Below, in pieces: positions 9,525 through 48,140 of a DNA stretch of 64,000 nucleotides (the stretch's first letter is position 1; each line of letters opens with the position of its first letter). Made by a program: the position numbers and the translations under genes. Origin of the DNA: a virus; the IMG/VR virus record IMGVR_UViG_3300002225_000002. The stretch is one strand, 5' to 3'. The notes beneath the pieces are model-generated. The model ran no database searches. It had not been told where the DNA came from and saw only the letters and a list, made by a program, of their open reading frames with translations.

Positions 9525-10052
9525 CTATTCCTTAAAAAATTCTTTACAGTCTAAGTTGTACTTGATACTGTCAACCCTATGCACGCCCATTAAATACAAA
9601 GTATAAACGGATACACTAGAGCCACGTCCGACGCCCCACACTGTTCTTTCTTTTCTCATGGTATCTACGAAGTATTTCATGAACCTAAGCATATTAAGTA
9701 AATTAAATTTCTCAAATAGCTCCATCTCATGAGTAACTCTGTCAATTTCTTCTTGACCATCACATAAATTCATTATATGATGTTTGATATCAAGTATTTG
9801 GTACTCCCAAGGGATATTCCACTTATTGACTTGCTCAGCATGAAAGTCCTCAAAGGATGTTTCATTCTTCTCGTAGATATTAAGTCCAGTTTCACCTAAA
9901 ACCTGACTACAGTTCGTATTATACATTAATACGTCCTGTTCGTCAAGGAAAAAACAACCTGAAACATCTTTACCGTGTAGCATCAACTCAACCGCGTCGT
10001 TACTACTCAGTAAGTACCTTCCATATTCATCTAAGTTTTCGTTGGTTTCCAT
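9525..10052 (-). CDS. DNA polymerase III alpha (DnaE)-like fragment A, GRGS half of the palm
   Basis: RVTHEMELF...WGVGRGSSVSVYTLYLMGVHRVDSIKYNLDCKEFF parallels DnaE RL..EL.VI...VGPGRGSGAGSLVAYAL.IT.LDP...LLFERFL. Confidence 0.75.
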   Translation of the reverse strand: METNENLDEYGRYLLSSNDAVELMLHGKDVSGCFFLDEQDVLMYNTNCSQVLGETGLNIYEKNETSFEDFHAEQVNKWNIPWEYQILDIKHHIMNLCDGQEEIDRVTHEMELFEKFNLLNMLRFMKYFVDTMRKERTVWGVGRGSSVSVYTLYLMGVHRVDSIKYNLDCKEFFKE

Positions 10053-10762
10053 TTCAAGTCCGCCATAGCAATAGTAGATGTTAGTTTGTCAGGGACCTCT
10101 ATCTCACCTTCCTCGGCAGCACCGTAGGTAGTGTCATGGATTAATTTGGTGATTTGGTTTAGATCCGAAGCAGTCTCTAAGCTCTCAAGCAAGTCATCAT
10201 TAGACATACCTTCTACGTGCATTGGTTCCCACGTATCACAGTCATATCTTGCCCACCAAGGCTCTGTATATAGAGACTTACCTTCAAACACGCTATTGTC
10301 CATGTTAATCTGATAGCCAGCTTTATCACTGAAGTAAAAGGTAGATTCAAAATCTGTTGATTTAAGGGATACTTGAAGCACCTCTATGTTATCACCAGAC
10401 AATACCGATACTTTCTTGAATAAGGCTTCACTAAGTATGCTGTCAGTTGGTTCTTGGGGAGTAGACACAAATACATTGTCGAAGTCACCAGTAAAAAATG
10501 CTTCGAGTGTAGGTACGTCTGTAGATCCACATGCAAAGATATCCATCATGAAGTTTTGCAACCACCACTTTACGCGTTGATAGGATACTGTTATATCCCT
10601 CATTTGGGCTTCTTTGTCTTCTTCGGAGATGCCTTCTTGTGCCTTACCGGCGAGTTTTATGACTAGTTCCCAATTAACTGGGTACATGTGTCTGTCGAAC
10701 GACCTGATGCCGCTGAAATTGTGTTCAATCGTGTTATACACGTGAATATTTTCGTCTATCAT
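10031..10762 (-). CDS. Hypothetical protein (start moved to MIDEN after GAGGA)
   Basis: Long ORF overlapping the start of fragment A. Confidence 0.6.
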   Translation of the reverse strand: MIDENIHVYNTIEHNFSGIRSFDRHMYPVNWELVIKLAGKAQEGISEEDKEAQMRDITVSYQRVKWWLQNFMMDIFACGSTDVPTLEAFFTGDFDNVFVSTPQEPTDSILSEALFKKVSVLSGDNIEVLQVSLKSTDFESTFYFSDKAGYQINMDNSVFEGKSLYTEPWWARYDCDTWEPMHVEGMSNDDLLESLETASDLNQITKLIHDTTYGAAEEGEIEVPDKLTSTIAMADLKWKPTKT

Positions 10763-10769
10763 AGATTCC

Positions 10770-11084
10770 TCAATCATCAACGCCTTTGATATGACCAAGA
10801 GTAGCCACAACGTTGGGATTTGGTTTTTTCTTCTTGGATTTTTTCTTTCTGCCATAGCGACCAGCACTCTGCTTTTCGCGTTCTTTATTGGCTTCTTCTT
10901 GTTTCATTTGTTGACGATATTCAGCTTCTTCGCCTAGTACGCCAATCAATGATTCAAGACTATCCACCATTCCTTGGAATTGCGTGCCTCGGTAATTCAT
11001 TAGCATCTGGTTACTCTTCAGTAACTTCGCCATGAGTTCCTCATCACTTAAATCTTTAGGATCTATTAGATCATACATATACAT
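10770..11084 (-). CDS. Hypothetical protein, 104 aa, coiled-coil with basic tail
   Basis: SD AAGGA; KKKSKKKK tail. Confidence 0.55.
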   Translation of the reverse strand: MYMYDLIDPKDLSDEELMAKLLKSNQMLMNYRGTQFQGMVDSLESLIGVLGEEAEYRQQMKQEEANKEREKQSAGRYGRKKKSKKKKPNPNVVATLGHIKGVDD

Positions 11085-11088
11085 TTCC

Positions 11089-11226
11089 TTATGTATAAGT
11101 CAATAACATGAATGCTCCCATAGCAATGCAGATGAGAGACATATCAATAGCCGCCCATCTTAGCAAATTCTCACGTTTCACAGACTTCTCTGCGCTTATT
11201 ACTATATTTATGAAAGTTATGATCAC
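11089..11226 (-). CDS. Small hydrophobic protein, 45 aa (not in ORF track)
   Basis: GTG start after GGAGG; MIITFINIVISAEKSVKRENLLRWAAIDMSLICIAMGAFMLLTYT fills the gap exactly. Confidence 0.4.
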   Translation of the reverse strand: MIITFINIVISAEKSVKRENLLRWAAIDMSLICIAMGAFMLLTYT

Positions 11227-11227
11227 A

Positions 11228-11560
11228 CTACCCCTCCTGTGTCTCCAGAATCTTTTCGTAGTCGTCACCGTACATCATACGAAGGAATTCATCACTCTTC
11301 TCTTCATCATCCATTTTTAGCACACGTGCACGTTGACGTGACTCTTCAGATTTATCTTTATCATCAATATTCATAGTTCTGAGAATAGCACGTTCTCTTG
11401 CTAGTTCCTGAGAAGGACCAGTCGTCAAACAACGCTTGAACATCGTGAATGATATAAGACCCAAAAGACCCTGAACCAACATATACAGGTTCAGTTTCAT
11501 AGTTACGCCGAATACACGACGCTTTTGGACACTAAGGCTATAAGGTTCGTCAGTATTCAT
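11228..11560 (-). CDS. Hypothetical protein with one TM segment
   Basis: ORF in operon with ATGA overlap. Confidence 0.5.
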   Translation of the reverse strand: MNTDEPYSLSVQKRRVFGVTMKLNLYMLVQGLLGLISFTMFKRCLTTGPSQELARERAILRTMNIDDKDKSEESRQRARVLKMDDEEKSDEFLRMMYGDDYEKILETQEG

Positions 11561-11874
11561 AGGTAATCATTCCTAGTAATGGTATATAGTATTTCATTAA
11601 TGCCAATATCTCTATCAGCGGTGAGTTCGATACCAGTGGAGTCTATGGTATACTTGAGAACGTCTTCATAAGTCCAATCGGTAAATCCCATAGCCTTGAA
11701 AGTTCTACCGTGAGCACCTTCAGAGTAAGCTTCGGCATCATCATTACCGTAAACACTTCGTATAGCGCCAGACACCTTACCTATAAGGAAGAAAACGTTA
11801 CCGTCTGGACCACCTATGTCGATTTTTTTACCGCATAATGGCCATTCTAATTCAGAGTAAGGTTGATCAATCAT
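11557..11874 (-). CDS. Hypothetical phage protein
   Basis: GPDGNVFFLIGKV motif; operon context. Confidence 0.55.
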   Translation of the reverse strand: MIDQPYSELEWPLCGKKIDIGGPDGNVFFLIGKVSGAIRSVYGNDDAEAYSEGAHGRTFKAMGFTDWTYEDVLKYTIDSTGIELTADRDIGINEILYTITRNDYL

Positions 11875-12202
11875 CTGACATCACATACACACTAAATCGT
11901 GTGGTGGATGGCCACATAGGAACTTCTTTGGCCATATCAAAAGATAGCTGCATTGCCATAGAATCATCGTCATTGGTAAAACCAACATATGCATAAAATT
12001 CAGATTTAGCTCCGCTCATACGAGAGTGAAATGTCTGTTTTTCAGAAAGAATTTGAGATGTACAGAATGTTCCTATGCAACCCTTACGAGACCAACGCAC
12101 AACTTTCTTTACTTCAGCAATATCATCACACTTAACTATGAACATACGATAGTCTTTGCCTGATATGTACTGATCCATCATTAATTTTTTCTTCTTAGCC
12201 AT
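11867..12202 (-). CDS. Hypothetical protein (start moved to MAKKKK)
   Basis: SD GGAG upstream of ATG 12202. Confidence 0.5.
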   Translation of the reverse strand: MAKKKKLMMDQYISGKDYRMFIVKCDDIAEVKKVVRWSRKGCIGTFCTSQILSEKQTFHSRMSGAKSEFYAYVGFTNDDDSMAMQLSFDMAKEVPMWPSTTRFSVYVMSDD

Positions 12203-12256
12203 AACATCATTCTCCACTTTTTTAAATAATACCAACAATTACATTCACGGTCAATA

Positions 12257-13249
12257 TTATTTTTTCACGTAGCCTTTATCTTCGTGGTGAGCAGCTAATA
12301 TTTCAACCATCGCATCAATATCATCACTATCATGATCTTGATATTCAATCACTGCGGATTCACCTTCAGATTCCATACCGTAGTTAGGATCTTCCTTCTC
12401 TTCCAATATTTCTAGAAGCTCATCGAGATTCTTCTGCATAGGCTTAGACACTTTAGACTTCCCACTCAACGTTTCCATGAATATCTCTTGCTCTAACCAT
12501 TCATAAAGATCACGAGTTATCACATCTTTTCTATCTGCACGTTTCAAGTCACGGTTAATGAACGAGCATAGCTCCTTGGCAGTTAAAGGACTACGTTGGT
12601 AGTCAGACGTATCAAGGACAGACATTAATAAAGGCGTATTGAATAACATAGCCCTAACATCTGACTTATTCCTAAAGGTATGGAATACAGATTTAAACTC
12701 AGCGAGTCTTTCATCAGTAGATTTTCTACCTTTAGACACATATTCGCCCCAATCATAACAATGAAGCTTAAGAGTGTCTGAAAGTCCATACTTCTTAAGT
12801 TTGAATCCAGCTTTCCCTCTAACAAGGACACCATATTCATCCTTACTAGGAATACGATCTGATATCAACTTATATGTTTCGTTATTTGGCTTAGCTGCAA
12901 ACAGGCCTATCCTTACATGCCTAGACATGTAACCTTTACGGTTAGACAGAACAGTGTAATCTATGATACCGGCATCAATAAGACCAATAAGGTCTTGGTC
13001 ATTCATAGAGTCCACATTACACACGTCAAATAACGTGCCTTTTTTGATGGCAGCCTCTACTATATTGATACGTTCTTTTTGCTTTGTTCTTTGCGCCAAG
13101 TCACGTATCAATTCAGCTCTAGTTTTATTTTTACTTCCATACTGACCGCCATTGTTTTCGGCCCACCACGAATAGTTACCCATTTGCATTATTTCCGTTA
13201 CTAAGTTTTTACCAAGTACGCTTGGCATATCCATCACTACCGATTTCAT
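12257..13249 (-). CDS. Hypothetical protein, ~310-330 aa (true start uncertain)
   Basis: Long ORF, no recognised motif. Confidence 0.6.
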   Translation of the reverse strand: MKSVVMDMPSVLGKNLVTEIMQMGNYSWWAENNGGQYGSKNKTRAELIRDLAQRTKQKERINIVEAAIKKGTLFDVCNVDSMNDQDLIGLIDAGIIDYTVLSNRKGYMSRHVRIGLFAAKPNNETYKLISDRIPSKDEYGVLVRGKAGFKLKKYGLSDTLKLHCYDWGEYVSKGRKSTDERLAEFKSVFHTFRNKSDVRAMLFNTPLLMSVLDTSDYQRSPLTAKELCSFINRDLKRADRKDVITRDLYEWLEQEIFMETLSGKSKVSKPMQKNLDELLEILEEKEDPNYGMESEGESAVIEYQDHDSDDIDAMVEILAAHHEDKGYVKK

Positions 13250-13448
13250 AACCGTCAGGTGGTTTTACTCCGTCGTTTTCCACGACAATTTCATCAGTCG
13301 AAGATAACTTCAAGAACATGAAGTCTTCTGGCGTCATGATATTGGCACCTTTATTACCAAGTTCACGATAACAAAAGTCATCAATGAATTCGTTCCATTT
13401 TTTTTCGAAACGTCTTGTAACTGGTTCGCCGCCTAATGAATTACTCAT
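13209..13448 (-). CDS. Hypothetical protein (start MSNSLGG)
   Basis: SD GGAG upstream of ATG 13448. Confidence 0.5.
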   Translation of the reverse strand: MSNSLGGEPVTRRFEKKWNEFIDDFCYRELGNKGANIMTPEDFMFLKLSSTDEIVVENDGVKPPDGYEIGSDGYAKRTW

Positions 13449-13459
13449 GGTATTCTCCG

Positions 13460-13795
13460 TCAGTCTTTGGTTGGTTTGGTATGTATAATACCTTGTTCTA
13501 TGAGTGTTGCCCACATACAATACAGATTATTCTTTAGAGTTCCGTCATACATGTACTCAGAACCTATCAGCCCAAGAGGGGATAGAACTCTACTGTTATG
13601 CATGTCTCTAACATCTATCTGTGCGTATTCACCGTGGATAGTTTTAACTGTTAAGTAATTATCGCCTTCCATAAAAAGACTACATGACAATTTAAACTCT
13701 AAAAAACTTTCTGTTTCTTGGTCACGCTCGTAGATATTCGATACACATACCAAGGGCAAAGCTTCGCCCGTGGTTGTTATTAATACTACGCTCAC
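13460..13795 (-). CDS. Hypothetical protein, 111 aa
   Basis: Overlaps the MazG stop; operon context. Confidence 0.5.
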   Translation of the reverse strand: MSVVLITTTGEALPLVCVSNIYERDQETESFLEFKLSCSLFMEGDNYLTVKTIHGEYAQIDVRDMHNSRVLSPLGLIGSEYMYDGTLKNNLYCMWATLIEQGIIHTKPTKD

Positions 13796-14202
13796 ACGTC
13801 ACCGTCCTTCCTGTTCTCACTGAAATGTACGTCGAATGATCCACTTGGGTATCTGCTTTCCAGCTTTTCGACATTCATCTCTATAACTTTGATCGGATCG
13901 ATATCTAACGCCATACACGCGTTGATCCAATAGAAAATGATATCACCCAACTCGCGTTGCATGTGGAAAATATTATCTTCGTTGTATTCTTTACCCTGAT
14001 ACTTGATTTTCTTAACAACTTCTTCAAATTCGCCTGCTTCCGCCGACATACCTTGAGATGCTGTGTCCAATCTAGCAATATCACAGCCTTGCTCATTCAA
14101 TTGAGTCAAACGTGCGATATAGGATTCAAATTTAGTGCTTTCATCACTAGTAAGTGTGTCAACAAAATGTGTGTAGTTCTTTAAAATATTCTGGTCTTTC
14201 AT
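13792..14202 (-). CDS. mazG: MazG-like NTP pyrophosphohydrolase
   Basis: EAGEFEEVVKK...QRELGDIIFY, the ExxE...ExxD metal-binding pattern; NVEKLESRYP. Confidence 0.85.
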   Translation of the reverse strand: MKDQNILKNYTHFVDTLTSDESTKFESYIARLTQLNEQGCDIARLDTASQGMSAEAGEFEEVVKKIKYQGKEYNEDNIFHMQRELGDIIFYWINACMALDIDPIKVIEMNVEKLESRYPSGSFDVHFSENRKDGDV

Positions 14203-14224
14203 TTTTCTTCCTTGATATAAATTA

Positions 14225-14250
14225 TAAAGGGCAGCACTCCTGTGCCACCC
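14225..14250 (-). terminator. Rho-independent terminator after clpP
   Basis: Minus strand GGGUGGCAC-AGGA-GUGCUGCCC followed by UUUAU. Confidence 0.6.
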
Positions 14251-14262
14251 CTATGCACAGAC

Positions 14263-14907
14263 TTAGGTTAAGTCGGCACGTGATCTGATTACACGGTCAG
14301 CGAATCCGCCTTTAACAGCATCTTCTGCTGATAAGAACGTGTCGTAACGCATGGTTTCGAACAATTCTTCGTAAGTTTTACCCACAGAGTTATGCTGAAC
14401 ATACAGTTGAGTCAAACGTTCGTTCAAACGCTCACCTTCTTCAACCGAACGTTTGATATCTTCCAACTCTTCACGCATAACGTGGATAGAACCTTGTGTG
14501 TTGGCTGTACCGGCACTAACACGATGGATCATAGTACGTGATTCGCCCATTACAAAACGCTTACCGGCAGTACCTGATTGAGCTAAGAAGCTACCCATTG
14601 ATGCTGCTTGACCAGTAACGATAGTTTTCACGTCACATTCGATAAATTGAGCGGTGTTATAGATGGCTAAGCCAGCAGTAACAGAACCACCAGGAGAATT
14701 GATGTACATATTGATATCGCTTTCAGGATTTTCCGCTTCAAGGAACATCATTTGCGCAGTAACAATATCAGCCATACCGTCATGGACTTCACCACTTACG
14801 TAGATGATACGTTCTTTAAGTAAACGTGAGAAGATATCGTAAGAGCGTTCGCCGTTAGGGGTTTGTTCAACGACCATAGGTACTAAGCTAGATAATGGAG
14901 TATTCAT
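14263..14907 (-). CDS. clpP: ATP-dependent Clp protease proteolytic subunit
   Basis: [37 protein letters not shown], catalytic Ser AASMG, His MIHR, Asp YDTF. Confidence 0.95.
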
Positions 14908-14944
14908 GTTTTTTCTCTTTTGTCAGTGAAAGTATTGAGTTGTA

Positions 14945-14973
14945 ATTCTATTCGATTTTTATATTGGTGTCAA
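14945..14973 (-). promoter_or_regulatory. Sigma70-like promoter for clpP
   Basis: TTGACA-N17-TAGAAT on the minus strand. Confidence 0.7.
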
Positions 14974-14978
14974 CATAA

Positions 14979-15281
14979 TCATCTAATATTTTTTGCTACT
15001 TCTAAAAATTCAAGTTTACCGATTAACAAGTTGGCAATGCGATCATAAGACTCACATTCAAAATCATCAGGCCCATAACGTGTAACGCCTGTACCTTTAA
15101 TAACTACAACTTCGTCTGTTTTCATATCCAGACCGACACTATCTGCACCATCGAACTTTTCAGTGTCGATTACTACTAAAGCTTTAATAGTTAGGAGCAC
15201 AAATACTTCCAAAGGGTCTATAGCGATAGCGTCTGTGTTGGTTACAATGCCGTTTACGTTAATCATTGAATGGATTCTCAT
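14979..15281 (-). CDS. Hypothetical protein, 100 aa
   Basis: ORF in operon. Confidence 0.5.
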   Translation of the reverse strand: MRIHSMINVNGIVTNTDAIAIDPLEVFVLLTIKALVVIDTEKFDGADSVGLDMKTDEVVVIKGTGVTRYGPDDFECESYDRIANLLIGKLEFLEVAKNIR

Positions 15282-15465
15282 CTACGTTAACTTTTTCGAA
15301 GGTTAACTCGCCATACACATAGAACTGCTTTTGTTCTGCAACATACACGGCACTAGAGTACTGACCTTCTTTGAATTTCTTGTAATCTTCTTGCAAGAGC
15401 ATCTCAGTGAACCCATTATATCGGGTTATTTGGCTGATGTCACTGATTTTATAATCTTTCTTCAT
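15259..15465 (-). CDS. Hypothetical protein, 68 aa
   Basis: Directly downstream of a sigma70-like promoter; SD GGAG. Confidence 0.5.
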   Translation of the reverse strand: MKKDYKISDISQITRYNGFTEMLLQEDYKKFKEGQYSSAVYVAEQKQFYVYGELTFEKVNVDENPFND

Positions 15466-15488
15466 TGTGGCTCTCCTTTAATGCGTGT

Positions 15489-15517
15489 ATTATACTACAA
15501 AGACCACATAAGGTCAA
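15489..15517 (-). promoter_or_regulatory. Sigma70-like promoter
   Basis: TTGACC-N17-TATAAT. Confidence 0.7.
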
Positions 15518-15524
15518 TGTTTTT

Positions 15525-15532
15525 GATAAATA
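15525..15532 (+). promoter_or_regulatory. Late-like promoter GATAAATA
   Basis: 5 nt before ATG 15538 of a plus-strand gene. Confidence 0.55.
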
Positions 15533-15537
15533 ATAGC

Positions 15538-15882
15538 ATGAGACTTATAGAACTTTTCGAGACAAACGACAAATACTTTTCAGCCACCAATGAATTGGAT
15601 GCTGAGTTGAACCCTGAATCATCTTCTTATAAAGAAGAAGAGGAATCTAAGGCTAAAAAGAAAGCCAAAGATAATAAAGGGGGCACGCCCGTAGTCACGG
15701 ATGATGTTGATAACGAAGAAGAGGATTGGACCTCTACTCCAGTCGTAGGTGATATGCAATCTGCTGGATATCGAGGAAGAGAAGAGGCTAAAGCTAATGC
15801 TGGTATGCCACATGACAAATACCAACGATTCGACCCTGACTATTTCGTCCAAGATACCCCAGATGTTCCTACTCCGCTATAG
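15538..15882 (+). CDS. Putative head internal protein, 114 aa (start MRLIELFE)
   Basis: CTS-like N-terminus, acidic, own late-like promoter; the upstream part of the ORF-track call overlaps minus-strand genes. Confidence 0.55.
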   Translation: MRLIELFETNDKYFSATNELDAELNPESSSYKEEEESKAKKKAKDNKGGTPVVTDDVDNEEEDWTSTPVVGDMQSAGYRGREEAKANAGMPHDKYQRFDPDYFVQDTPDVPTPL

Positions 15883-16623
15883 AATCTTATCTAAAGCGGC
15901 AGCCACAGAGGCAGCTAAGTCAGAATCGTACTTATCGCCATCTTCCTGCAATGAATCCATGTTGCTTAAGGCCCACGTCCAGTAAGTAATAGGTATTTCT
16001 ACCATAGGCTTACCGACATGTTTACCAAACGTCATATTTTCATATATAATAGGCGCTTCTAACCACTCATAGATCTCTTCAAGATTATATTCATGAATCT
16101 GCCCTAAAGCCTTCATCATTTCTACTTGCTTCTCGAACACTTTACCTATGATGGCGTTATGCATAGCAGTGTCGGTTTCATAATCATTTCTTTTTATGTT
16201 CGCCCCGAAGAAATGATTCAAGTATGGCAATTTATAATTAGTCATGCCCAAACCTAACGCATCAAGCTTCTTACTTATTCTACTAACGCATATCAATTTT
16301 TTACCGGATAACATTTTACTGCCATTACCGTTAATCATGCCTGCATGAAAAGTTGAATTACACATTACAACGTATTCATTCACGTCAGGTATAACGCCAT
16401 CTAACTCATGAAGTCTCTTATCGCCTAACATACTTTCAGTAATGTCATGTAGGTATGAAATTTCTGGCGTAATAGGAACATCAGCTTTACAATAAGATGT
16501 CATATTATCCCACTTACCAGTGGATGACTTATATCCTACGCATAATGCTATGACTTGGTCTTGTTTGAAGTCAAGTCCAGTTGTTTCGGTATTAACTATT
16601 GTTACATTATCAAAGTTTATCAT
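15877..16623 (-). CDS. Exodeoxyribonuclease X-like DEDDh protein with degenerate active site
   Basis: IVNTETTGL, PITPEISYLHDITESMLGDK, VMCNSTFH, and C-terminal TFGKHVGK...YWTWAL align with ExoX-type proteins. Confidence 0.7.
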   Translation of the reverse strand: MINFDNVTIVNTETTGLDFKQDQVIALCVGYKSSTGKWDNMTSYCKADVPITPEISYLHDITESMLGDKRLHELDGVIPDVNEYVVMCNSTFHAGMINGNGSKMLSGKKLICVSRISKKLDALGLGMTNYKLPYLNHFFGANIKRNDYETDTAMHNAIIGKVFEKQVEMMKALGQIHEYNLEEIYEWLEAPIIYENMTFGKHVGKPMVEIPITYWTWALSNMDSLQEDGDKYDSDLAASVAAALDKIL

Positions 16624-16774
16624 TTTTTAGTCTTTCAATTAAGTTTTCTGTGCTCTCAGTAAGCTCTTCGCACTGAGTAGCTATACCGAAGTATCCTTCG
16701 GCAGATAATATTTCATACATTCCAGCTATGAACTTTTTATGTCGTTCTAACTCTGCAATAACGTCTTCTTCCAT
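16610..16774 (-). CDS. Small hypothetical protein, 54 aa (not in ORF track)
   Basis: MEEDVIAELERHKKFIAGMYEIL...; stop overlaps the start of the next gene; weak RBS. Confidence 0.3.
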   Translation of the reverse strand: MEEDVIAELERHKKFIAGMYEILSAEGYFGIATQCEELTESTENLIERLKNDKL

Positions 16775-16840
16775 AATAAATAAGCTCTAGGTATGTTTTA
16801 TGGTGCGTATTTTACCACACCACGACTTTTTTGTAAAGAC

Positions 16841-17335
16841 TTATCCAAATATAAAGGATTTAAGCTTGCACCACCAACAAGGAACATAACTTTTAGATGT
16901 CTGGTGAATACGTTCCGGTTTTTTGGTTATAGTTTCATTGGTTTCTATTTCAACCCAGCATCCGCTATCGTATTCCTCATTTATTAACCAATACGACGTC
17001 TGATTTTCAGCATCTCTATCGTCTTTGGCATACACTTCCTTACAAATGAAATCTTCTTTCTCATATGACCTGAATGAATGCAAGACCATGGCGTATTTTT
17101 TCAGGCCTCGTAATGTATTCTCGAAGTCGTCTATGTTCTCACCATCTACCTCTTCGATATTTCTCACCTTCAGTACGAAAGTTTTCCCATGTCTCATTTT
17201 TCCATCATTTTCAACATCAATCTGTAATCCTGCGGCTACGTAATCCGCATCAATACCAACCATATCTACCGATTTACATTTCATTTCTATTTTTTTACCG
17301 CCCCACCATGTGGACAGTACGATTATAGATCTCAT
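16841..17335 (-). CDS. Hypothetical protein, 164 aa
   Basis: SD GGAG; long ORF. Confidence 0.55.
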   Translation of the reverse strand: MRSIIVLSTWWGGKKIEMKCKSVDMVGIDADYVAAGLQIDVENDGKMRHGKTFVLKVRNIEEVDGENIDDFENTLRGLKKYAMVLHSFRSYEKEDFICKEVYAKDDRDAENQTSYWLINEEYDSGCWVEIETNETITKKPERIHQTSKSYVPCWWCKLKSFIFG

Positions 17336-17351
17336 TCTTTGTTCTCCACGT

Positions 17352-17375
17352 AAAAAACCGCACTAGGCGGTTTTT
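17352..17375 (-). terminator. Rho-independent terminator (bidirectional shape)
   Basis: AAAAACCGC-ACTAG-GCGGTTTTT. Confidence 0.7.
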
Positions 17376-17391
17376 GTTCATAAAGTAAGTG

Positions 17392-17970
17392 CTATAGGTT
17401 CTTAAGATCTAAACCTTTGTCAATCTTCGTCTCGAAAGCTTCACGAGCATGAGATGAACTTACAATTTCACAGTACGTTGCCAAGTCAATTTCGGGGAAC
17501 TTAGCCAGTGATAAGAAGAAACCACTAACTGTCTGTCTTAATGTCGTCTTATACGCTCGACACATGTCAATTCTGTTATTCTGCATCTGCTCGAAGTTAG
17601 TACGTCCGCCTTTAATGGCACGCATTACTTCTTTCTTCAGAGAAGGATCAATAGTCTGCGTAGATTCATTCGACCATAACATCTTAGCCGTTGCTCCGTC
17701 ATCACCATACTTACCTTTCATAGCTGCGGAAATTAACTTCACCATATCATCGGTATGTGAGTTAGCTACCTGCATCATTTCCACTACTTTCAATGACATC
17801 TGGGCCAATGTGTTCTCGTCCGCCTTGTATTGACCTACAATACCTTCTTCAGTTGCCACTGCAGTATCTTTATGCCCGATATACGCTACGCCAAATGCAA
17901 TGATAGGACCTAATACTAAGACCAATACTGTTACTACGATAGCTAGCGTTGTTTTTGTTGATTGCTTCAT
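17392..17970 (-). CDS. Membrane-anchored helical protein, LemA-like
   Basis: N-terminal TM anchor followed by a long amphipathic helical domain; size typical of LemA. Confidence 0.45.
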   Translation of the reverse strand: MKQSTKTTLAIVVTVLVLVLGPIIAFGVAYIGHKDTAVATEEGIVGQYKADENTLAQMSLKVVEMMQVANSHTDDMVKLISAAMKGKYGDDGATAKMLWSNESTQTIDPSLKKEVMRAIKGGRTNFEQMQNNRIDMCRAYKTTLRQTVSGFFLSLAKFPEIDLATYCEIVSSSHAREAFETKIDKGLDLKNL

Positions 17971-18005
17971 GTGTTTCTCCGTTGGGATATGTATTTGATG
18001 AGTTC

Positions 18006-18034: not shown

Positions 18035-18062
18035 CACTTTTATCTAAAAGCCCATCTTTTCT

Positions 18063-40603: not shown

Positions 40604-40629
40604 ATCCTGTTATATCCTGTAGTTTCATA

Positions 40630-41100
40630 CTATTTATCAAAAATAGGCGCATTGATATCTATTCTTAGTTTACTAAGAATCTTCTTAGCATCCTTCATTC
40701 TATCAACTGCTTCGTTCAATCTATCTTCAGCAACCATCACTGCGCACATATTATCTGATGTGGCAATTGTATTACTGTAGACTAGAGTATCGTATTTATA
40801 CTTACCGTACTCATGGTCCGCTTTTACGATGTCGGAAATATTCTTATGTGGTGATTTTAACTTAACTTGGACGATAAGGAATGCAGTATCTAGACTATAT
40901 AGATTCTTACATACGCTATACTTACCAAGATGAATGTCGTAACCGAGACTAGTAGAGTGAATGACATATTCGCCAACGCTAACACCGTCCTTGATCTTCT
41001 CTTCCAATTGGTCTAACTGATAAGTTTTGATCTTTTGTTCCAGCAACTGAACTGTTTCCACGATAGTTTCCTTTTTAATTAATCCATTATGTGTATTCAT
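40630..41100 (-). CDS. Hypothetical protein, 156 aa
   Basis: Operon context. Confidence 0.55.
   Translation of the reverse strand: MNTHNGLIKKETIVETVQLLEQKIKTYQLDQLEEKIKDGVSVGEYVIHSTSLGYDIHLGKYSVCKNLYSLDTAFLIVQVKLKSPHKNISDIVKADHEYGKYKYDTLVYSNTIATSDNMCAVMVAEDRLNEAVDRMKDAKKILSKLRIDINAPIFDK
40631..40638 (-). promoter_or_regulatory. Late-like promoter GATAAATA
   Basis: 27 nt upstream of ATG 40603. Confidence 0.55.
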
Positions 41101-41738
41101 CGAGTCCTGCCCGTTTTTGGACCTGGTTTCTCGTTCTTTCTGTGTCGTTTGATTATCTGATTCGGAGTGGTACTTCCATCACGAGACATCGCTTTACACG
41201 TCATCGGCGTAGGTGACCCAATCTCTTCACCCATAGCTTCATCTTCTATCCCAGCTAACTGTCTAATACGATCTATCTCCGCCATGGCATCATCCCTATT
41301 GGTGATTGGCGCGTTAGGTATATCAGGCATATCTGAAATAGAAATATGCTGTCCGTCATCTGTTTGCATGGTCGTTTTATCGCCCATCATAGATACGCTT
41401 GAAATCTTGCTGTCTCCACTACCAGTAGAAACCATATCTCCACTTTGTAGTGCTGCCAAGTTAACCATTTCGTCATCTTGGTCTTGGTTCGCCATAGGAT
41501 CTTGTGTGCCTTGTCTAGCCGCAGTGTATGCGTTACCTTCCATGGCAATTTTACTATGAAGTATAGCTTTCACTTTAGGAGTATCGTTAGCATCAATAGC
41601 GTCTTTTAGATCGGTGTAGTCACTAAATGACATTTGCCTTAATAACTCTCTAGCCTTTGAAGAATCAACTCCGTAAGTCTGAGATAAAATTGATGATACA
41701 TCCTCGTTTAATATTCCCTTTACGATCCTATCGAACAT
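41097..41738 (-). CDS. Putative head-associated protein, 213 aa
   Basis: ILNE, AMEG and EIDRIRQLAGI motifs. Confidence 0.55.
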   Translation of the reverse strand: MFDRIVKGILNEDVSSILSQTYGVDSSKARELLRQMSFSDYTDLKDAIDANDTPKVKAILHSKIAMEGNAYTAARQGTQDPMANQDQDDEMVNLAALQSGDMVSTGSGDSKISSVSMMGDKTTMQTDDGQHISISDMPDIPNAPITNRDDAMAEIDRIRQLAGIEDEAMGEEIGSPTPMTCKAMSRDGSTTPNQIIKRHRKNEKPGPKTGRTR

Positions 41739-42031
41739 TACTTCTTTCTCCTATTGATAATAACCAACTTTCTAGACGCTGGATTTATACGTTTTGTCTT
41801 CTTAGCTTTTTTAACTAATCGTCTTCCGTATTTCTTCTTCGTCTTTTTAAGGCTTACGCTCTTACCAATGTCCAAGGGCAGACTACACTGCTCTGGACTG
41901 GATACTACGCGACCTTTTCTAAGGCCACTAGTACATCTGAATTTCTTTTTTAGCTTAGTGCCAGTACGACCCCATACTAAAGACTCATCGATGTCTTCAC
42001 TTTCACTCAATATCTCCGCTATCAACATCAA
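41738..42031 (-). CDS. Small basic protein, 97 aa
   Basis: MLIAEILSE start, KFRCTSGLRKGRVV, K/R-rich. Confidence 0.55.
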   Translation of the reverse strand: MMLIAEILSESEDIDESLVWGRTGTKLKKKFRCTSGLRKGRVVSSPEQCSLPLDIGKSVSLKKTKKKYGRRLVKKAKKTKRINPASRKLVIINRRKK

Positions 42032-42419
42032 AATCTCCCTTTAAGAATTCCAAATTCAAATCGTCACCAGACGTTTTCAAAACATTTCCACAAGGTAGAA
42101 CCGTATCGTTCAGTTCATCCTGTAATAATCCTACCGGATTGCCGTCATCACCAAGAAAAATATCGACTGCTTCAATAGCAAAATCCCAAACGTACCCAGT
42201 TCCTTTAAAGTTTTCAGATCCTAAATCTTTCACTGATCTAACTTTCTTTAATGCTGATACACTTTCGGGAATTGCCCTCAGTCCAATAGTTTGCTTTAAT
42301 ATTTCAAAATTCTTCCCTTCAGTACTTCTTAAGTTGCCGTCATCAGATAATACAATATCTTCCGATTTTAAGAACATCCTGAAAGTGTCGAAATCTTTAG
42401 TTACTCTTGGGTTATACAT
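42003..42419 (-). CDS. Hypothetical protein (start MYNPR)
   Basis: 11 nt downstream of GATAAATA at 42431-42438. Confidence 0.55.
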   Translation of the reverse strand: MYNPRVTKDFDTFRMFLKSEDIVLSDDGNLRSTEGKNFEILKQTIGLRAIPESVSALKKVRSVKDLGSENFKGTGYVWDFAIEAVDIFLGDDGNPVGLLQDELNDTVLPCGNVLKTSGDDLNLEFLKGDFDVDSGDIE

Positions 42420-42442
42420 CTTCCATTCCCTATTTATCAAGT

Positions 42443-43876
42443 TTAATTCAATTTCTTAATGATACTCTGTAAAGCATTGAAATCGCCAACTGCCGGAGTC
42501 TTTCCATCATCATCTGTAGTAGCAGCAGGAGCAGGAGCAGGAGATGCACCAGTACCACCAGTAACTACGCTAGGATCACTTCCCAACTTATTAATCACTC
42601 CAGTCGTATTTAACTGTATAGAGCTTACCGCGTCTGGGGCCAAGTCATGTATCCTAAGCGTTTTTACATTAAAGCCAAGATCAATCTTAGAACCAACACC
42701 GGCACTAGAACGCGTTTTCATGAATTGAAGCTGGTATCTACCATTCTCTTTCATTGTCGGCGTAGTAAAGATACCAAACACGTTATCCGCAGTGTTGATC
42801 TTACTCATACCACCAGCGATGTTAGCGTGTGTGAACTCTACGGTGTCTTCATGGGACGATCTATTTAACTGACTCGCAGTCGCTAATAGGGTATCCAATT
42901 CCACTGCCAAATCACGTAAGTTTTCCGTTACGTACTTATCCTTAACGAATAAGTTTTCTGGAGATATCTTAGCGTTGGTTGGCATGAACAGATCTAAGTA
43001 ATCCAATACTAACGCATCCACTTTGATGCCAGTTTGAATTTCATATTCCTTCACGAAAGCTTTGATGTCGTTTGCTGTACATCCGTTCTTCATCTGTTTA
43101 ATACGAAGTGATCCACCAAACTTCTTATTAAAGGTGTTTAGCTTAAGATGTACGTCGTCCCTATTCTTAAGAACGTCTCTGGTTCCATGATCAGTGATCA
43201 TAGCGTCAATACGCATGGCACATAGATTCTCACTAAGTTCCAATGTCACGTATATCACGTTCAGGCCCATCTCAACCCAGTTAACAGCTATATTCTGTAA
43301 GAATACAGATTTACCGGCACCTGATTGTCCAGCGAATATAGATAGCTCACCTCTATTCACTCCGCCGTACAGTTTCTCATCTAACGCGTCCCATCCAGTA
43401 GATATTGCACCTCTGGTATTAGCAACGTCATTAAGACGCTGCAGGGGATCAGCAAAGTAGTCCAAACCTAGGTCTTTTACTAAGCCTACGCTCACCGCTT
43501 GCTTTACCATGTCTTCTACTTCGCCATACCTGTGTTCTATCAACAGATCTGGAGCAGCAAATATGGCTGTTTCTATTTGTTTATGTCTTGCGAACTTTTC
43601 ATATTCATCTAAGAACCAATCACGTTCCGTGTCATCGCACTGTGTTAGTTTTTCTACTGTGACGCCCGTAACGGCCTTAATCTGTTCTAACGTAGGTAGT
43701 CCGTTGTAGTCTTTGGCGTAATCAGCCAAAAAGAATACAACTTTCCTATTATTAGCATCTGAATAATGCTCACTATCGATGATACCTAAGCATCTAACGA
43801 ATAGTGAAGGGTCGGTCACAAAAAATCTTATAAATATGTTCTCAATATCAGCAGTATATTCCTTTATATCACTCAT
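42443..43876 (-). CDS. Replicative DNA helicase (T4 gp41 / DnaB-like)
   Basis: Walker A GQSGAGKS, VTLEL, LDYLDL, TASQLNR, NTADNV, KTRSS. Confidence 0.92.
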   Translation of the reverse strand: MSDIKEYTADIENIFIRFFVTDPSLFVRCLGIIDSEHYSDANNRKVVFFLADYAKDYNGLPTLEQIKAVTGVTVEKLTQCDDTERDWFLDEYEKFARHKQIETAIFAAPDLLIEHRYGEVEDMVKQAVSVGLVKDLGLDYFADPLQRLNDVANTRGAISTGWDALDEKLYGGVNRGELSIFAGQSGAGKSVFLQNIAVNWVEMGLNVIYVTLELSENLCAMRIDAMITDHGTRDVLKNRDDVHLKLNTFNKKFGGSLRIKQMKNGCTANDIKAFVKEYEIQTGIKVDALVLDYLDLFMPTNAKISPENLFVKDKYVTENLRDLAVELDTLLATASQLNRSSHEDTVEFTHANIAGGMSKINTADNVFGIFTTPTMKENGRYQLQFMKTRSSAGVGSKIDLGFNVKTLRIHDLAPDAVSSIQLNTTGVINKLGSDPSVVTGGTGASPAPAPAATTDDDGKTPAVGDFNALQSIIKKLN

Positions 43877-44888
43877 TAAAGTTATCCATCTTCCTTTTTA
43901 GTGTTATTTTCATAGGGTTATGTTCGGCACTGGCAATAACCGATTTAACAGTCAGCAATCTTCCATATTCCTGAACTGCCTTACCCACATCTTTAATATC
44001 TTTTCGCCAGTTAGGGAAACTCACTTCCCATTTATTAGCCAATGCTATGTCCACTAATGATTGACCATCTTTATCTCTATCAGGGATGACAATGACTCTC
44101 TTTCCTAGACTGTTTATAATGTCTATCTGCGCTTGGTTCATTGTTCCCATACAAGACACACCATTACATAGATACGCGTCTATGACGCCCTCTGTAAGTA
44201 GTATGAATGGATAGTCCATAGATTGCTTATCCAGATTATAAATGAAATCTTCTGGAGTCAAATTTAGGTATCTGCGTATGTGTTTTGCGGGTGACGCAAC
44301 ATAGTATCTCCCGCTGTATCCTACAACTTCATCTTTATACCAGAAAGGCATAAGGATTCTTTTGTGCATTGAGTGCTCTGTGTTAGGTGTCCAGTACATA
44401 TCCGTAAGGTCAAGTTTCCTTTCCAGACAGTAGTTGGCAACCTTTACCAAATTCTTGTCGTTACAACCGGCTTCCAGCCAGAATAATACAGAGCGGGAAT
44501 CTGGTGGTAAATCCACCTTCTTCCACTTAGACCTAGAGTCCTCAGTAACCTTAACATCTTGGAAAATCTCGCCTGCTTCTTTCTCTCTGAAAGATTGGAA
44601 CTTAATTTTCTTGACATCGTCTGACGGAACCCCTATAGTCTCCATAAACCAAGCAAAATCTTTGCTGATTAATGAACCTCTGCCATACTTGGCTTTGAAG
44701 GCACAGTTGAAACAATGGACAGCGACGGACGTACCGCCTTCTATCTTCATCCCGAATCTGCTTTTTTTGTCTATACCATGTCCTCTATGAGGGCACAGTG
44801 GACAGTTACGGGTTTGCCAGCCTTTACGACTCGCTTTTAACCCGCCTAACTTCGGTACAATTGTTTCTATAATAGTGTCTAGTAGCAT
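43869..44888 (-). CDS. DNA primase (T4 gp61 / DnaG-like)
   Basis: Zn finger CPLC...HCFNC; TOPRIM LTEGVIDA and IPDRDKDG; start moved to MLLDT. Confidence 0.88.
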   Translation of the reverse strand: MLLDTIIETIVPKLGGLKASRKGWQTRNCPLCPHRGHGIDKKSRFGMKIEGGTSVAVHCFNCAFKAKYGRGSLISKDFAWFMETIGVPSDDVKKIKFQSFREKEAGEIFQDVKVTEDSRSKWKKVDLPPDSRSVLFWLEAGCNDKNLVKVANYCLERKLDLTDMYWTPNTEHSMHKRILMPFWYKDEVVGYSGRYYVASPAKHIRRYLNLTPEDFIYNLDKQSMDYPFILLTEGVIDAYLCNGVSCMGTMNQAQIDIINSLGKRVIVIPDRDKDGQSLVDIALANKWEVSFPNWRKDIKDVGKAVQEYGRLLTVKSVIASAEHNPMKITLKRKMDNFNE

Positions 44889-44894
44889 CCGGCT

Positions 44895-44923
44895 ATTATA
44901 ACATAGGAACACTAGTTTGGCAA
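44895..44923 (-). promoter_or_regulatory. Sigma70-like promoter for primase-helicase
   Basis: TTGCCA-N17-TATAAT with extended TG; ATG is 6 nt after the -10. Confidence 0.65.
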
Positions 44924-44928
44924 GATGT

Positions 44929-45351
44929 TTATGGCGTAGGTGGCCAATCCCCAGATAGAACTTTTAACATGACTTCTTCTAATGGCACGCCGGACATGTC
45001 AGAGAACTGTTCCCAACTGGTTATTCTTTTATTATCTACATACCAAGTATAGACTTTGTCGGACCCAATTTGCCTAATGAGTGCCGGTCCATCTATTCTA
45101 TGTAGTTTACCACGGTGATAATGTGTTAATTTTCCTGGTCCAATTACAGCCGGTAGACCATCACCCCTATGTGGGTTGCCTTCTTTATCGTACCATCTAG
45201 TTGATCCGTCGTTACTTATAGAGTAACTTCCGTTTTCATAGTTAGTTAGGCCGCTGCCATGTTCGCTTTTATTATAGACCCTATTCATATTTTTTATTTT
45301 TTCTAATTTGTCTCGATAGACCTGTAAATTCACGGACATGGTATTCTCCAA
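44929..45351 (-). CDS. Hypothetical protein with HR.DG.PA(V/L)I repeats
   Basis: HRGDGLPAVI and HRIDGPALI. Confidence 0.6.
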   Translation of the reverse strand: MENTMSVNLQVYRDKLEKIKNMNRVYNKSEHGSGLTNYENGSYSISNDGSTRWYDKEGNPHRGDGLPAVIGPGKLTHYHRGKLHRIDGPALIRQIGSDKVYTWYVDNKRITSWEQFSDMSGVPLEEVMLKVLSGDWPPTP

Positions 45352-45358
45352 AAATGGA

Positions 45359-45387
45359 AGTATACCACAACTTACGCGTTATAGCAA
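45359..45387 (-). promoter_or_regulatory. Sigma70-like promoter
   Basis: TTGCTA-N17-TATACT with extended TG. Confidence 0.6.
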
Positions 45388-45393
45388 ATATAC

Positions 45394-45401
45394 GATAAAT
45401 A
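45394..45401 (+). promoter_or_regulatory. Late-like promoter GATAAATA
   Basis: 23 nt upstream of ATG 45425. Confidence 0.55.
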
Positions 45402-45424
45402 CAGTAAACTAACGGACACTATCA

Positions 45425-45988
45425 ATGATCATTTCAGAAATCGTAGACAGAGAAGGTTCTAGCCTTGACTACAGAACAGGCGGAGACCATATTAATTTAC
45501 CAGATGGCTCTATAGCGCAGACTTGCCCACAGTGTAAGGGTAGCGGTAAAGAGGGAATCAGCAGACCTTTACAGAGAAATAATAACGAATTTATGCAAGG
45601 TGGAGACACCAACCCTACTAAGATATGCACCAATTGTCATGGTAAAGGTTACACCGACAAAGTAGAGGGTAAACTATCCATGGGTTATAATCCAGATGAT
45701 TATGAGAGCATTAAAGACTTCAAAGCTGGACATCCAGAAATATACCAATATATTCTAGATAATAAGAAAGGTAACCTTAACGCTAAGCAAGCAATTATCG
45801 AGTTGAAAAAGAATGGCTCATTAAGCGTAGAAAGATTCAGAAAAATAGAAGGTGCCATGAACAACAAAGCTAATGACATTAGTGATGATGCTGGCATAAG
45901 AGCAGCCAGTAAAATGAAGACTGACAAAAGGTGGAACGATAAGACCTACAGTAGAACAGCAGGCGGCCATCGCGGTAGACACAAATAA
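45425..45988 (+). CDS. DnaJ-type zinc-finger protein with CTS-like N-terminus
   Basis: CPQCKGSG and CTNCHGKG; starts MIISEIVDRE. Confidence 0.6.
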   Translation: MIISEIVDREGSSLDYRTGGDHINLPDGSIAQTCPQCKGSGKEGISRPLQRNNNEFMQGGDTNPTKICTNCHGKGYTDKVEGKLSMGYNPDDYESIKDFKAGHPEIYQYILDNKKGNLNAKQAIIELKKNGSLSVERFRKIEGAMNNKANDISDDAGIRAASKMKTDKRWNDKTYSRTAGGHRGRHK

Positions 45989-45990
45989 AT

Positions 45991-46013
45991 AAAGCGCCTA
46001 GGGCGCTTTTTTT
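45991..46013. terminator. Terminator between convergent genes
   Basis: AAAGCGCC-TAG-GGCGCTTT followed by a T-run. Confidence 0.75.
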
Positions 46014-46953
46014 ATGATCTTAATTGTACTCTATCCAGTTTATTCTCAACGACACTATTGTCATCTAAGATTAACTCAGGCGGATCAAGATGTGATGGGT
46101 GTGGGACACCGGCATCATCAGTAGCAACCCAATAGAAAATAATCCACAGCACATTAGATTGTATAGACCATGCATCTATACCATGAAACGTTTGTAGTTT
46201 TCCATTCTCGTCAACATCGCCATATCTAGCGAACTCACTATAATCAGTAAGGTTAAGAGGGAAGTACTTTTCTCTATCCGAAGCAGCTGGAGGGATATGT
46301 TCCAGTGATCCACGTGCTTGGAATAACCCACGGTAATTTTCAGCCGAGACTGTAAATGTATGAGTTCCATGTTTAAGGTTTCTTAGTCTATTAGCTGCGA
46401 TAGGGTGGCTGTAATACAATTTAGTATATACGCCTTCTATCTCAACTGACTGCGAAGACCATTCAATTATCTCTGTGGTTGGAATAGGTGCCTTCTCAAC
46501 ACTATCAGTCACTTCAGCTTCTAATCTTATATTAGAAGTAGCGTCTGTATAGAATGGGGTAGATACTATCTCACCAGCTTGGCTAGGGATAAAGTCTTCT
46601 TCGCCAGTAACAACGAAGTCATAGAAACCAGCGGCGATATCTACTAACTGCCCTTCTGGAATAGCAACTGTGAATATACCTCTAGTACATTCAAGTGTTC
46701 CCTTAACAGTTAATACGCGTTCGCGGTTCTCTTTATTAATTAATGTGCCACTTATTTTAAGGTGGTCTATTTTTGCTCTTTTTCTATCGGAATCGAAAAC
46801 TCTGAATTTCAGAAGGTTATCGACCCCTTTATGAATTTTTACTAATCTTGTGTTCATAGGCGCGTTGTCCGTCAAATTACACTCGCAAGTGAACCTACTA
46901 TTATCAAACAGCAGATCATACCAATTGTCGTATCTATATAAGTCATATAACAT
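46012..46953 (-). CDS. Probable virion protein, 313 aa
   Basis: Beta-rich; preceded by CATAAATA at 46959-46966. Confidence 0.5.
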   Translation of the reverse strand: MLYDLYRYDNWYDLLFDNSRFTCECNLTDNAPMNTRLVKIHKGVDNLLKFRVFDSDRKRAKIDHLKISGTLINKENRERVLTVKGTLECTRGIFTVAIPEGQLVDIAAGFYDFVVTGEEDFIPSQAGEIVSTPFYTDATSNIRLEAEVTDSVEKAPIPTTEIIEWSSQSVEIEGVYTKLYYSHPIAANRLRNLKHGTHTFTVSAENYRGLFQARGSLEHIPPAASDREKYFPLNLTDYSEFARYGDVDENGKLQTFHGIDAWSIQSNVLWIIFYWVATDDAGVPHPSHLDPPELILDDNSVVENKLDRVQLRS

Positions 46954-47005
46954 ACCTCTATTTATGGATTTCGGAATGATTTTTACTGCTGATAGATTTA
47001 GCTAT

Positions 47006-47018
47006 GATAAATACTATT
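47006..47018 (+). promoter_or_regulatory. Late-like promoter GATAAATACTATT abutting the ATG
   Basis: One mismatch to the extended T4 late consensus; ATG at 47019. Confidence 0.6.
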
Positions 47019-47378
47019 ATGACAAATACAGACGAATTCCCATTTTTAACACATATATCCTTACAAGGCGGCGAGAAATTGTGCCTTATACAAAACAGTG
47101 ACGAGAAAATTCTAAGTTATTATGACTTGGATAGCATCGTTATCAAGGAAGAGAAGGCCAGATTATTAGAACTTGGCGATACTTGGTGGCATGAGAGCAA
47201 TCGCTTACTACCTATTAATATCTTTCTTAGAGAAGAGATGACTAGATATAAGCCATTTCTTAGGACTGTTAACAAAAAAGACGTAGAGGTCATTTCTGGC
47301 CCATGTACTTCTTTAAACAATCTTATACGTAAGAGAGTTAAGAAGCGTCAAATCACTTTAGTAAGAAAGCCAAAGTGA
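47019..47378 (+). CDS. Hypothetical protein (start MTNTDEF)
   Basis: Plus-strand gene with its own late-like promoter. Confidence 0.6.
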   Translation: MTNTDEFPFLTHISLQGGEKLCLIQNSDEKILSYYDLDSIVIKEEKARLLELGDTWWHESNRLLPINIFLREEMTRYKPFLRTVNKKDVEVISGPCTSLNNLIRKRVKKRQITLVRKPK

Positions 47379-47575
47379 TATCTCATATTAAATATCTAGC
47401 TAATGACTCCGCTTTCATATATTATGAAGATTTGGAACACAGGTCATTAAGTGAAATTCGTGAAGGCGTACCGAAGGACATCTATGTTCTTGGTATAGTA
47501 GAAACGTACGTAACTGTCAACCCAGATACCTATGAACCAACACGGTACTACATGATCAATATATCTTCTCAGTAA
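47375..47575 (+). CDS. Hypothetical protein, 66 aa
   Basis: GTGA overlap with the upstream gene. Confidence 0.4.
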   Translation: MISHIKYLANDSAFIYYEDLEHRSLSEIREGVPKDIYVLGIVETYVTVNPDTYEPTRYYMINISSQ

Positions 47576-48140
47576 TAAGATTCATTTTTACTACTAATGA
47601 CATGGCGTAAGCGTAACTATGCGCACGTTTGAAGTGATAACCGCCATCAGCAGGCTTATCCCAAATCTCTTTATCAATATCAATTCTAGATCTACCAACT
47701 AGGTGTCTCTTTGCTGGTCGTATAATAGCCAGTGCCACAGCTAGATCATCCACATTACGTGGGCGTATACTATTAACAATATCAAAGTGACCAGTAAGGT
47801 GAGGTAATTGATCCACGAATTCTTCATGTTCCATTAGGTCCCACTGTACCATGCACTCTTCACAAAGGGCATCAAGATGAGCTTCATCTTCAACCTCTTC
47901 ATATATCGAATTATTAAGGACATCGATCTTCTGATACCCTAACTCTTCAGCTATCTTGTACTCGAACGTAGCCATCCCTGTAATAGGGTTAGCAGGTATA
48001 TCTTGAACATAGATACCCACGTTATGTACTTGTTCTTTATCATCTTTGGTACGTATCATAGCACGAACATGACGGACGCTCTTCAGCGCCTCATCACGAC
48101 TTGCCACATCAATATCGATATCACCTTTAAAAATACTCAT
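47556..48140 (-). CDS. DNA polymerase III alpha (DnaE)-like fragment B with the catalytic aspartates
   Basis: GDIDID, HNVGIYV, GYQKIDVLN, LAVALAIIRPA, YHFKRAHSYAYA parallel DnaE PDxDxD, HxxGVVI, KxDxLG, LA..ALYRPG, YGFNKSHA.AYA. Confidence 0.8.
   Translation of the reverse strand: MSIFKGDIDIDVASRDEALKSVRHVRAMIRTKDDKEQVHNVGIYVQDIPANPITGMATFEYKIAEELGYQKIDVLNNSIYEEVEDEAHLDALCEECMVQWDLMEHEEFVDQLPHLTGHFDIVNSIRPRNVDDLAVALAIIRPAKRHLVGRSRIDIDKEIWDKPADGGYHFKRAHSYAYAMSLVVKMNLITEKIY

Follow-up and report, generated by a model that had tools for sequence, protein, structure and literature searches.

Two halves of a probable miniature DNA polymerase lie far apart in the genome of an uncultured marine jumbo phage. 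The window analysed here is a 64,000-nucleotide stretch of the IMG/VR virus record IMGVR_UViG_3300002225_000002, which comes from a marine metagenome and is 347,232 bp long. It contains two open reading frames (ORFs) on the minus strand, ORF A (9525-10052, 175 aa) and ORF B (47556-48140, 194 aa), which are very probably the subunits of a split minimal DNA polymerase III (Pol III) alpha of the kind carried by group 2.2 jumbo phages related to RaK2, PA5oct and Atu_ph07. Of the mini Pol III alpha palm, ORF A would supply the half that is N-terminal and binds nucleotide, and ORF B the C-terminal half, which binds metal and template. The two chains total 369 residues, and no smaller C-family polymerase core would then be known. 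Should the pair prove active, it would establish what a Pol III active site minimally requires and could show how B-family and C-family polymerases share the work in one viral replisome.

The split mini Pol III alpha in the window is a member of an already published family. Iyer, Anantharaman, Krishnan, Burroughs and Aravind described the split minimal enzyme of group 2.2 jumbo phages in 2021 (Viruses 13:63, PMC7824862, section 3.4.1 and Figure 3b), so that the pairing of the two ORFs, which the first-pass annotation of this DNA had regarded as the point still to be established, had already been reported. Their system and ours agree in having two distant genes, one for an N-terminal NTP-binding half and one for a C-terminal half binding Mg2+ and template, no other Pol III domains, a family B polymerase, a T4-like (group 2) replisome and a jumbo genome; only the host genome differs. 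Iyer et al. noted that the split enzyme accompanies the family B polymerase, suggested a role in the synthesis of one strand or in repair, and proposed that the enzyme can serve to model the Pol III module in its ancestral state (PMC7824862). The homologue of A in CBB had been described in an earlier genome paper as a truncated Pol III alpha, later genome papers merely list the genes, and the main text of the PA5oct omics paper makes no gene-level statement on either of them. To this picture we add a fused lineage and its nested position, selection values, a complex prediction with controls, and a residue map on the 2026 E. coli ternary complex.

Both ORFs are intact and have the ends reported for them in the first-pass annotation: ORF A closes with ...WGVGRGSSV...NLDCKEFFKE and ORF B begins with MSIFKGDIDID. 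They are separated by 37,504 bp, and B lies upstream of A on the coding strand, so that the genes do not follow the order of their counterparts in the protein. ORF A is recognised by the Pfam DNA_pol3_alpha model (31.6 bits against a cut-off of 23.9; positions 22-94 of 260 in the hidden Markov model), and the Pfam search with ORF B gave no match at all. In PHROGs, ORF A falls into phrog_11127 (1.5e-44) and ORF B into phrog_11778 (5.9e-60), both annotated 'DNA polymerase', and both ORFs weakly match phrog_405, the full-length DnaE family, over profile positions 362-429 (A) and 776-809 (B). By tblastn both match RaK2, PA5oct and Atu_ph07 with 36-49% identity, and ORF B is at most 49% identical to any deposited phage. 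Single-sequence phmmer searches of A and B against the PDB sequences returned nothing useful, and profiles were required. Chance resemblance can be set aside, because each family comprises hundreds of homologues in all of which the same motifs are invariant. For both halves, PHROG assignment, profile alignment and predicted fold lead to Pol III alpha.

The profiles, built from alignments of 30 A homologues (A1) and 31 B homologues (A2), were searched against the PDB sequences and aligned with solved chains of Pol III alpha. Residues 104-174 of A align with residues 322-392 in the Pol III alpha chain from E. coli, so that A ends at ...FERFL392. B starts on the DxDxD strand, where MPDIDID at 413-419 of the M. 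tuberculosis enzyme corresponds to E. coli 399-405. It then runs through KxD (E. coli K553/D555), RP(G/A) (R639-P640-G641) and GYxFxKSH (G753-H760), and stops about 20 residues further on. A ends eight residues before the DxD, the initiator methionine of B lies five residues before it, and about eight linker residues (NPERVSMP) are absent between the two. Since these alignments place both halves at the GRGS...FERFL / DxDxD junction, A and B abut where the first reading of the sequence had put them. Its further statements that the ORFs are free of split-intein sequence and are cut at a point other than that of cyanobacterial DnaE also hold: neither ORF matched any intein family at E <= 1. In cyanobacteria such as Synechocystis and Nostoc, a split intein rejoins the halves of a full-length DnaE, whose break falls just ahead of CFNKSH. 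The two arrangements share a C-family polymerase made from two distant genes, whereas the jumbo-phage version is intein-free, is cut about 360 residues earlier and has halves that must stay non-covalent.

The small size of the pair reflects the loss of whole domains. The bacterial enzymes DnaE and PolC (2HNH, 2HPI, 3E0D, 4IQJ and 5LEW) have the same Pol-beta-like palm and motif order and are the top fold matches; they differ from the present pair in their roughly 1,160 residues, compared with 369, and in being uncut between FERFL and PDxDxD. The 194 residues of B span E. coli positions 401-780, and counts of the residues between motifs indicate that the thumb (433-510) and the tip of the index finger (about 642-752) have no counterpart; nor does the portion of the E. 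coli enzyme beyond about 780. Also without a counterpart in the pair are the PHP domain, the ring and little fingers, the beta-clamp motif, and the HhH, OB and tau-binding domains. No PHP domain was found in either ORF or anywhere in the 347-kb record, which likewise lacks DNA_pol3_finger and contains ORF A as its sole match to PF07733.

What is kept comprises the C-family motifs (GS, DxD with the third aspartate, K553, RPG and the steric-gate histidine) in the canonical order, distributed over the two chains in such a way that the GS motif is present only in A and the aspartate triad, RP and KSH motifs only in B. For the ternary complex of E. coli Pol III, a preprint from 2026 names the residues lying no more than 4 A from the incoming dGTP and from the templating base, and H760 has been identified as the steric gate in the Pol III alpha from E. 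coli (PMC8485763). Mapped onto the pair, the GS motif R362-G363-S364 corresponds to R143-G144-S145 of A; D401/D403/D405 correspond to D7/D9/D11 of B, K553/D555 to K71/D73, R639-P640-G641 to R141-P142-A143, G753-Y754 and F756 to G167-Y168 and F170, and H760 to H174. These positions are invariant or almost so in the A and B alignments. WGVGRGSSV is invariant in the 30 A homologues, and D7, D9, D11, K71, D73, R141, P142 and H174 are invariant in the 31 B homologues, which are 38-72% identical. A neighbouring residue, S759, is replaced by Ala173 in this B; the family consensus is Ser. Judged from the alignments, the retained residues are the set that a templated, deoxyribose-selective polymerase would need, and what is missing serves the full enzyme in holding duplex DNA, in attachment to the clamp, and in bearing or recruiting proofreading.

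Structure prediction is consistent with this assignment. The AlphaFold2 model of B has a predicted local distance difference test score (pLDDT) of 92.0, and of the PDB structures that match it, the best six are Thermus Pol III alpha throughout (probability 1.00; template modelling score by query 0.50-0.52). For the model of A (pLDDT 87.7), Pol III alpha or PolC accounts for 14 of the best 16 matches in the PDB. The Foldseek E-values of both models lie slightly above 0.001 despite the top ranks held by Pol III alpha. When the two chains were predicted together, the complex scored 0.90 in three runs and the best control 0.00; in the calibration of this score, 58 of 80 solved complexes attained the mark, as did 2 of 110 mismatched pairs. 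The predicted interface places residues 135-148 of A, with the GS loop, against three segments of B, namely 1-14 (aspartate strand), 67-77 (KxD strand) and 171-184 (steric-gate helix).

From these data a mechanism can be proposed in which A and B would assemble non-covalently after translation, in an intein-free manner, and form a composite active site at the subunit interface. Besides the metal-binding aspartates D7, D9 and D73, B would give K71, contacting the primer-terminal phosphate, R141-P142, contacting the templating base, Y168, stacking on the incoming nucleotide, and H174, acting as the steric gate against ribonucleotides. The pair would then catalyse the templated addition of deoxynucleoside triphosphates (dNTPs). 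Because the PHP domain, thumb, index-finger tip, clamp motif, HhH, OB and tau-binding domains are missing, it is expected to be distributive or to depend on other proteins of the phage replisome. A precedent for how A and B may work together is the PhiKZ polymerase, also a jumbo-phage enzyme of two separately encoded chains, in which the split B-family DNAP-N and DNAP-C form a stable 1:1 complex by cryo-electron microscopy and need an extra DNA-binding subunit for good activity (bioRxiv 10.64898/2026.09.30.755723). It differs in belonging to family B instead of C, in coming from a nucleus-forming group 1 phage and in being the main replicase.

That A and B together are a bona fide DNA polymerase is, in our judgement, the somewhat better bet. 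A number of observations weigh against the heterodimeric mechanism proposed above. The thumb, which together with the palm makes most of the DNA contacts in E. coli Pol III, is missing. Glu171 of A sits at the position of E. coli R390, and the dNTP-contacting residues R709, K714 and K715 fall within the deleted finger tip. The local HMMER alignment of B with the E. coli enzyme is offset by two residues on the DxDxD repeat, and the register used here was taken from the M. tuberculosis chain and from the P-D motif of close relatives. Since structures have been solved for the fold of which both chains are parts, the complex score may in some measure reflect the model's memory of single-chain Pol III alpha. 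Our literature search, which included the years after 2021, found no biochemical or genetic data for any member of the family, and expression of neither gene in this genome is backed by RNA, as no RNA run with this DNA was found.

The Pol-beta superfamily includes many transferases that are not polymerases. Its breadth leaves room for the main rival explanation, in which A and B form an active heterodimeric nucleotidyltransferase of the Pol-beta fold that does not copy a template and instead carries out untemplated tailing, modifies DNA or nucleotides, or makes a signalling or anti-defence nucleotide. The absence of all the parts that hold the primer-template (thumb, HhH, OB and clamp-binding elements) and the loss of the stretch with R709, K714 and K715 would suit such an enzyme. 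It would leave without purpose the invariance of R141-P142, K71, Y168 and H174, which is sensible only for the templated use of dNTPs, and it does not sit well with the conserved replisome neighbourhoods, where B is found by the primase and helicase genes and A by the clamp loader. We therefore regard a non-polymerase transferase as improbable. The broader proposal of the first-pass annotation, a heterodimeric minimal C-family nucleotidyltransferase, is supported by co-occurrence, selection, profile and fold assignments, the predicted complex and a natural fusion, and templated polymerisation appears to be its likeliest activity.

The distribution of the two genes bears directly on whether they work together. 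Among viral records at least 90% complete, A was present in four of four records with B and B in three of three records with A (7/7 overall), the two genes lying 42-250 kb apart. Relatives of B occur on at least 597 IMG/VR contigs and relatives of A on at least 586, each of uniform length, and one half is missing only in fragments. Of the GenBank phages, 96 records carry B and 92 carry A, both being found in about 90 of the 96 deposited jumbo phages. A search of these phages with a fused query hit 186 places in 96 records, none of them contiguous; in RaK2, PA5oct and other deposited phages, A and B are likewise separate, distant genes. The family is thus widespread, with at least about 590 viral contigs for each half and 96 deposited jumbo phages, among them candidates for therapy such as PA5oct and the RaK2-like phages. 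A scan of genome contigs returned just two B loci; as both lie in metagenome bins and both have B without A, there is no sign of a cellular home.

Nature also seems to have joined the two halves. An exhaustive search with the B profile yielded 589 clusters at 50% identity, and the best 150 of these contain stand-alone proteins of at most 233 aa, save one of 375 aa. This protein and two relatives of 376 aa, with 78-81% identity (P0257, P0355 and P0354), are built of an A part and a B part with a linker of 10 residues between them; the A1 profile matches the A part with an hhalign probability of 99.7%. The fused genes lie on four metagenome contigs from four samples (L009:1066-2193, L010:519-1649, L179:1827-2957 and L180:1292-2422) as uninterrupted ORFs, with ratios of nonsynonymous to synonymous substitution rates (dN/dS) of 0.17-0.26 in both halves, which points to purifying selection on the fused form as well. 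On the longest of the contigs the fused gene is followed by a convergent phrog_11637 gene and then a phrog_14467 virion-protein gene, matching the surroundings of ORF B, and the fusion therefore occupies the B locus. A maximum-likelihood tree, calculated from 114 B parts and rooted by midpoint only, sets the fused clade (support 100/100) within the stand-alone B proteins, at a depth of four well-supported nodes. The simpler reading of this nested position is a secondary event, and the fusion looks like a re-fusion of previously separate halves.

In the stand-alone B lineage nearest to the fused forms, the zinc-finger neighbour (described below) is found upstream of B and there is no A gene. 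An adjacent or frameshifted A hidden upstream of this B was considered and rejected (hhalign probability 0.9%); the upstream gene resembles the zinc-finger neighbour, as judged by eye. On two of the contigs with fused genes, L179 and L180, a C5 DNA methylase (PF00145) is encoded upstream. In the ESM Atlas, the query P0257 gave feature-based matches (0.93-0.94) to clusters of 355-378 aa with PF07733, and sometimes PF17657, that are labelled Bacillota. These clusters might represent mini Pol III alpha in single-chain form from outside the jumbo phages, and we mention them as a lead only.

Co-occurrence and fusion have to be set against the possibility that A and B work separately, A as a nucleotide-binding or regulatory protein and B as a self-sufficient small enzyme, with the pairing a matter of mere ancestry. 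The location of the genes in separate operons at a distance of 37.5 kb, and their permuted order, are what such independence would look like. Yet neither half contains a complete active site, the GS loop being confined to A and the aspartate triad to B; both halves are found in all seven complete viral records; a natural A-B fusion exists; and the interface is predicted with confidence that no control approached. Two independent functions are thus very unlikely.

Selection on both genes also favours function. Pairwise dN/dS has a median of 0.084 over 16 pairs of A and of 0.104 over 125 pairs of B, values that show strong purifying selection on both halves. The coverage of only 369 of about 1,160 residues and the label 'truncated' once given to the CBB homologue might suggest that the ORFs are decaying relics of a phage DnaE once of full length, left open by chance; this reading is refuted by the dN/dS values, the invariant catalytic residues, the uniform lengths on hundreds of viral contigs, the 589 clusters of B and the synteny kept from RaK2 to Atu_ph07.

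The split mini Pol III alpha is not alone in its genome. The ends of the 347-kb record overlap by 126 bp, its first 19 bases being an inverted-repeat assembly artefact, and when they are joined, one intact ORF for a B-family polymerase (PolB) of 933 aa runs across the junction. The terminal overlap and this ORF indicate that the genome was assembled as a circle or is circularly permuted, and they provide the gp43-type polymerase that would be expected beside a T4-like replisome. The latter, already noticed in the first pass, is confirmed in the window by a gp32-type single-stranded DNA-binding protein, UvsX, helicases, primase and clamp loader. All seven complete relatives likewise encode a PolB, of about 900 aa. 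The mini enzyme as sole polymerase was rejected, as PolB is present in 8/8 genomes checked. The A+B pair would accordingly be accessory to PolB and not the main replicase, with primer extension, gap filling and repair as possible jobs.

Bacillus subtilis offers a functional model in its DnaE, a second, proofreading-less C-family polymerase beside the main replicase, which extends RNA primers and hands them off to PolC. The resemblance lies in a C-family polymerase next to the main replicase and serves as a model only for the linkage of ORF B to primase and helicase; the Bacillus enzyme differs in being full length and clamp-binding, and primer hand-off in the A+B pair is an analogy only. Following it, A and B could be the replisome's own polymerase for primer extension or for the lagging strand, a partner comparable to Pol alpha or to B. 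subtilis DnaE that would follow on the primase and then give way to the 933-aa PolB, a specialisation we consider conceivable and rather doubtful. The linkage of ORF B to primase and helicase, that of ORF A to a GroES-like and clamp-loader block, and the preserved dNTP steric gate are only hints in its direction. Were it true, these phages would have a natural replisome of two polymerase families, B plus C, around the smallest known C-family enzyme.

Both genes have conserved neighbourhoods. Immediately upstream of ORF B, a minus-strand gene (48137-48847) encodes a phage-specific protein of 236 aa with an N-terminal C2H2-like zinc finger (phrog_11058), and its stop codon overlaps the start of ORF B (ATGA). 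This protein, translationally coupled to ORF B, is a candidate for an extra DNA-binding partner. PA5oct, RaK2 and Atu_ph07 have a gene of matching size upstream of B. After ORF B comes a convergent plus-strand gene for 124 aa (47004-47378, phrog_11637), and a convergent gene of equal size follows B in RaK2, PA5oct and Atu_ph07. Further along on the minus strand are a virion structural protein homologue (46012-46953, phrog_14467), a DNA primase (43869-44888, phrog_47) and a DnaB-like replicative helicase (42443-43876, phrog_19). The order B, convergent small gene, virion protein, primase and DnaB-like helicase is common to RaK2, PA5oct, Atu_ph07 and this genome.

Downstream of ORF A, a small ORF and a GroES-like gene are followed by a clamp-loader homologue on the minus strand (7224-7877, phrog_168), an order also found in RaK2 and Atu_ph07. 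Near A in PA5oct, only the small ORF and a chaperonin are annotated, with no clamp loader in the region viewed. The clamp-loader homologue in the window is an ORF of 217 aa that covers positions 99-305 of the 314-position phrog_168 profile; its N-terminal part may be encoded in a separate ORF or begin at a non-ATG start.

Outside the window, at G000:C1:228798-229301, an open frame of 196 aa encodes a DnaQ-like exonuclease (RNase_T, 3.5e-26). Annotations of RaK2-like phages call its counterpart 'Pol III epsilon'; as a possible proofreader for the mini enzyme it would lack a PHP domain to dock on.

Two other records carry a larger, PHP-less DnaE of 563-568 aa with an almost full DNA_pol3_alpha domain, located in G009 at L091:3590-5281 on the minus strand and in G016:C1 at about 94.5-95.4 kb. 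In the G009 copy the finger domain was confirmed, and the gene adjoins one for an HhH-GPD glycosylase and lies about 4.5 kb from B. Both records carry the mini B, and G016 also has A and PolB. Found beside the split mini form, the PHP-less DnaE would add a third size class to the phage Pol III alpha proteins; its nearest deposited relative, with 38% identity, is found in the uncultured 484-kb phage LR756508.1.

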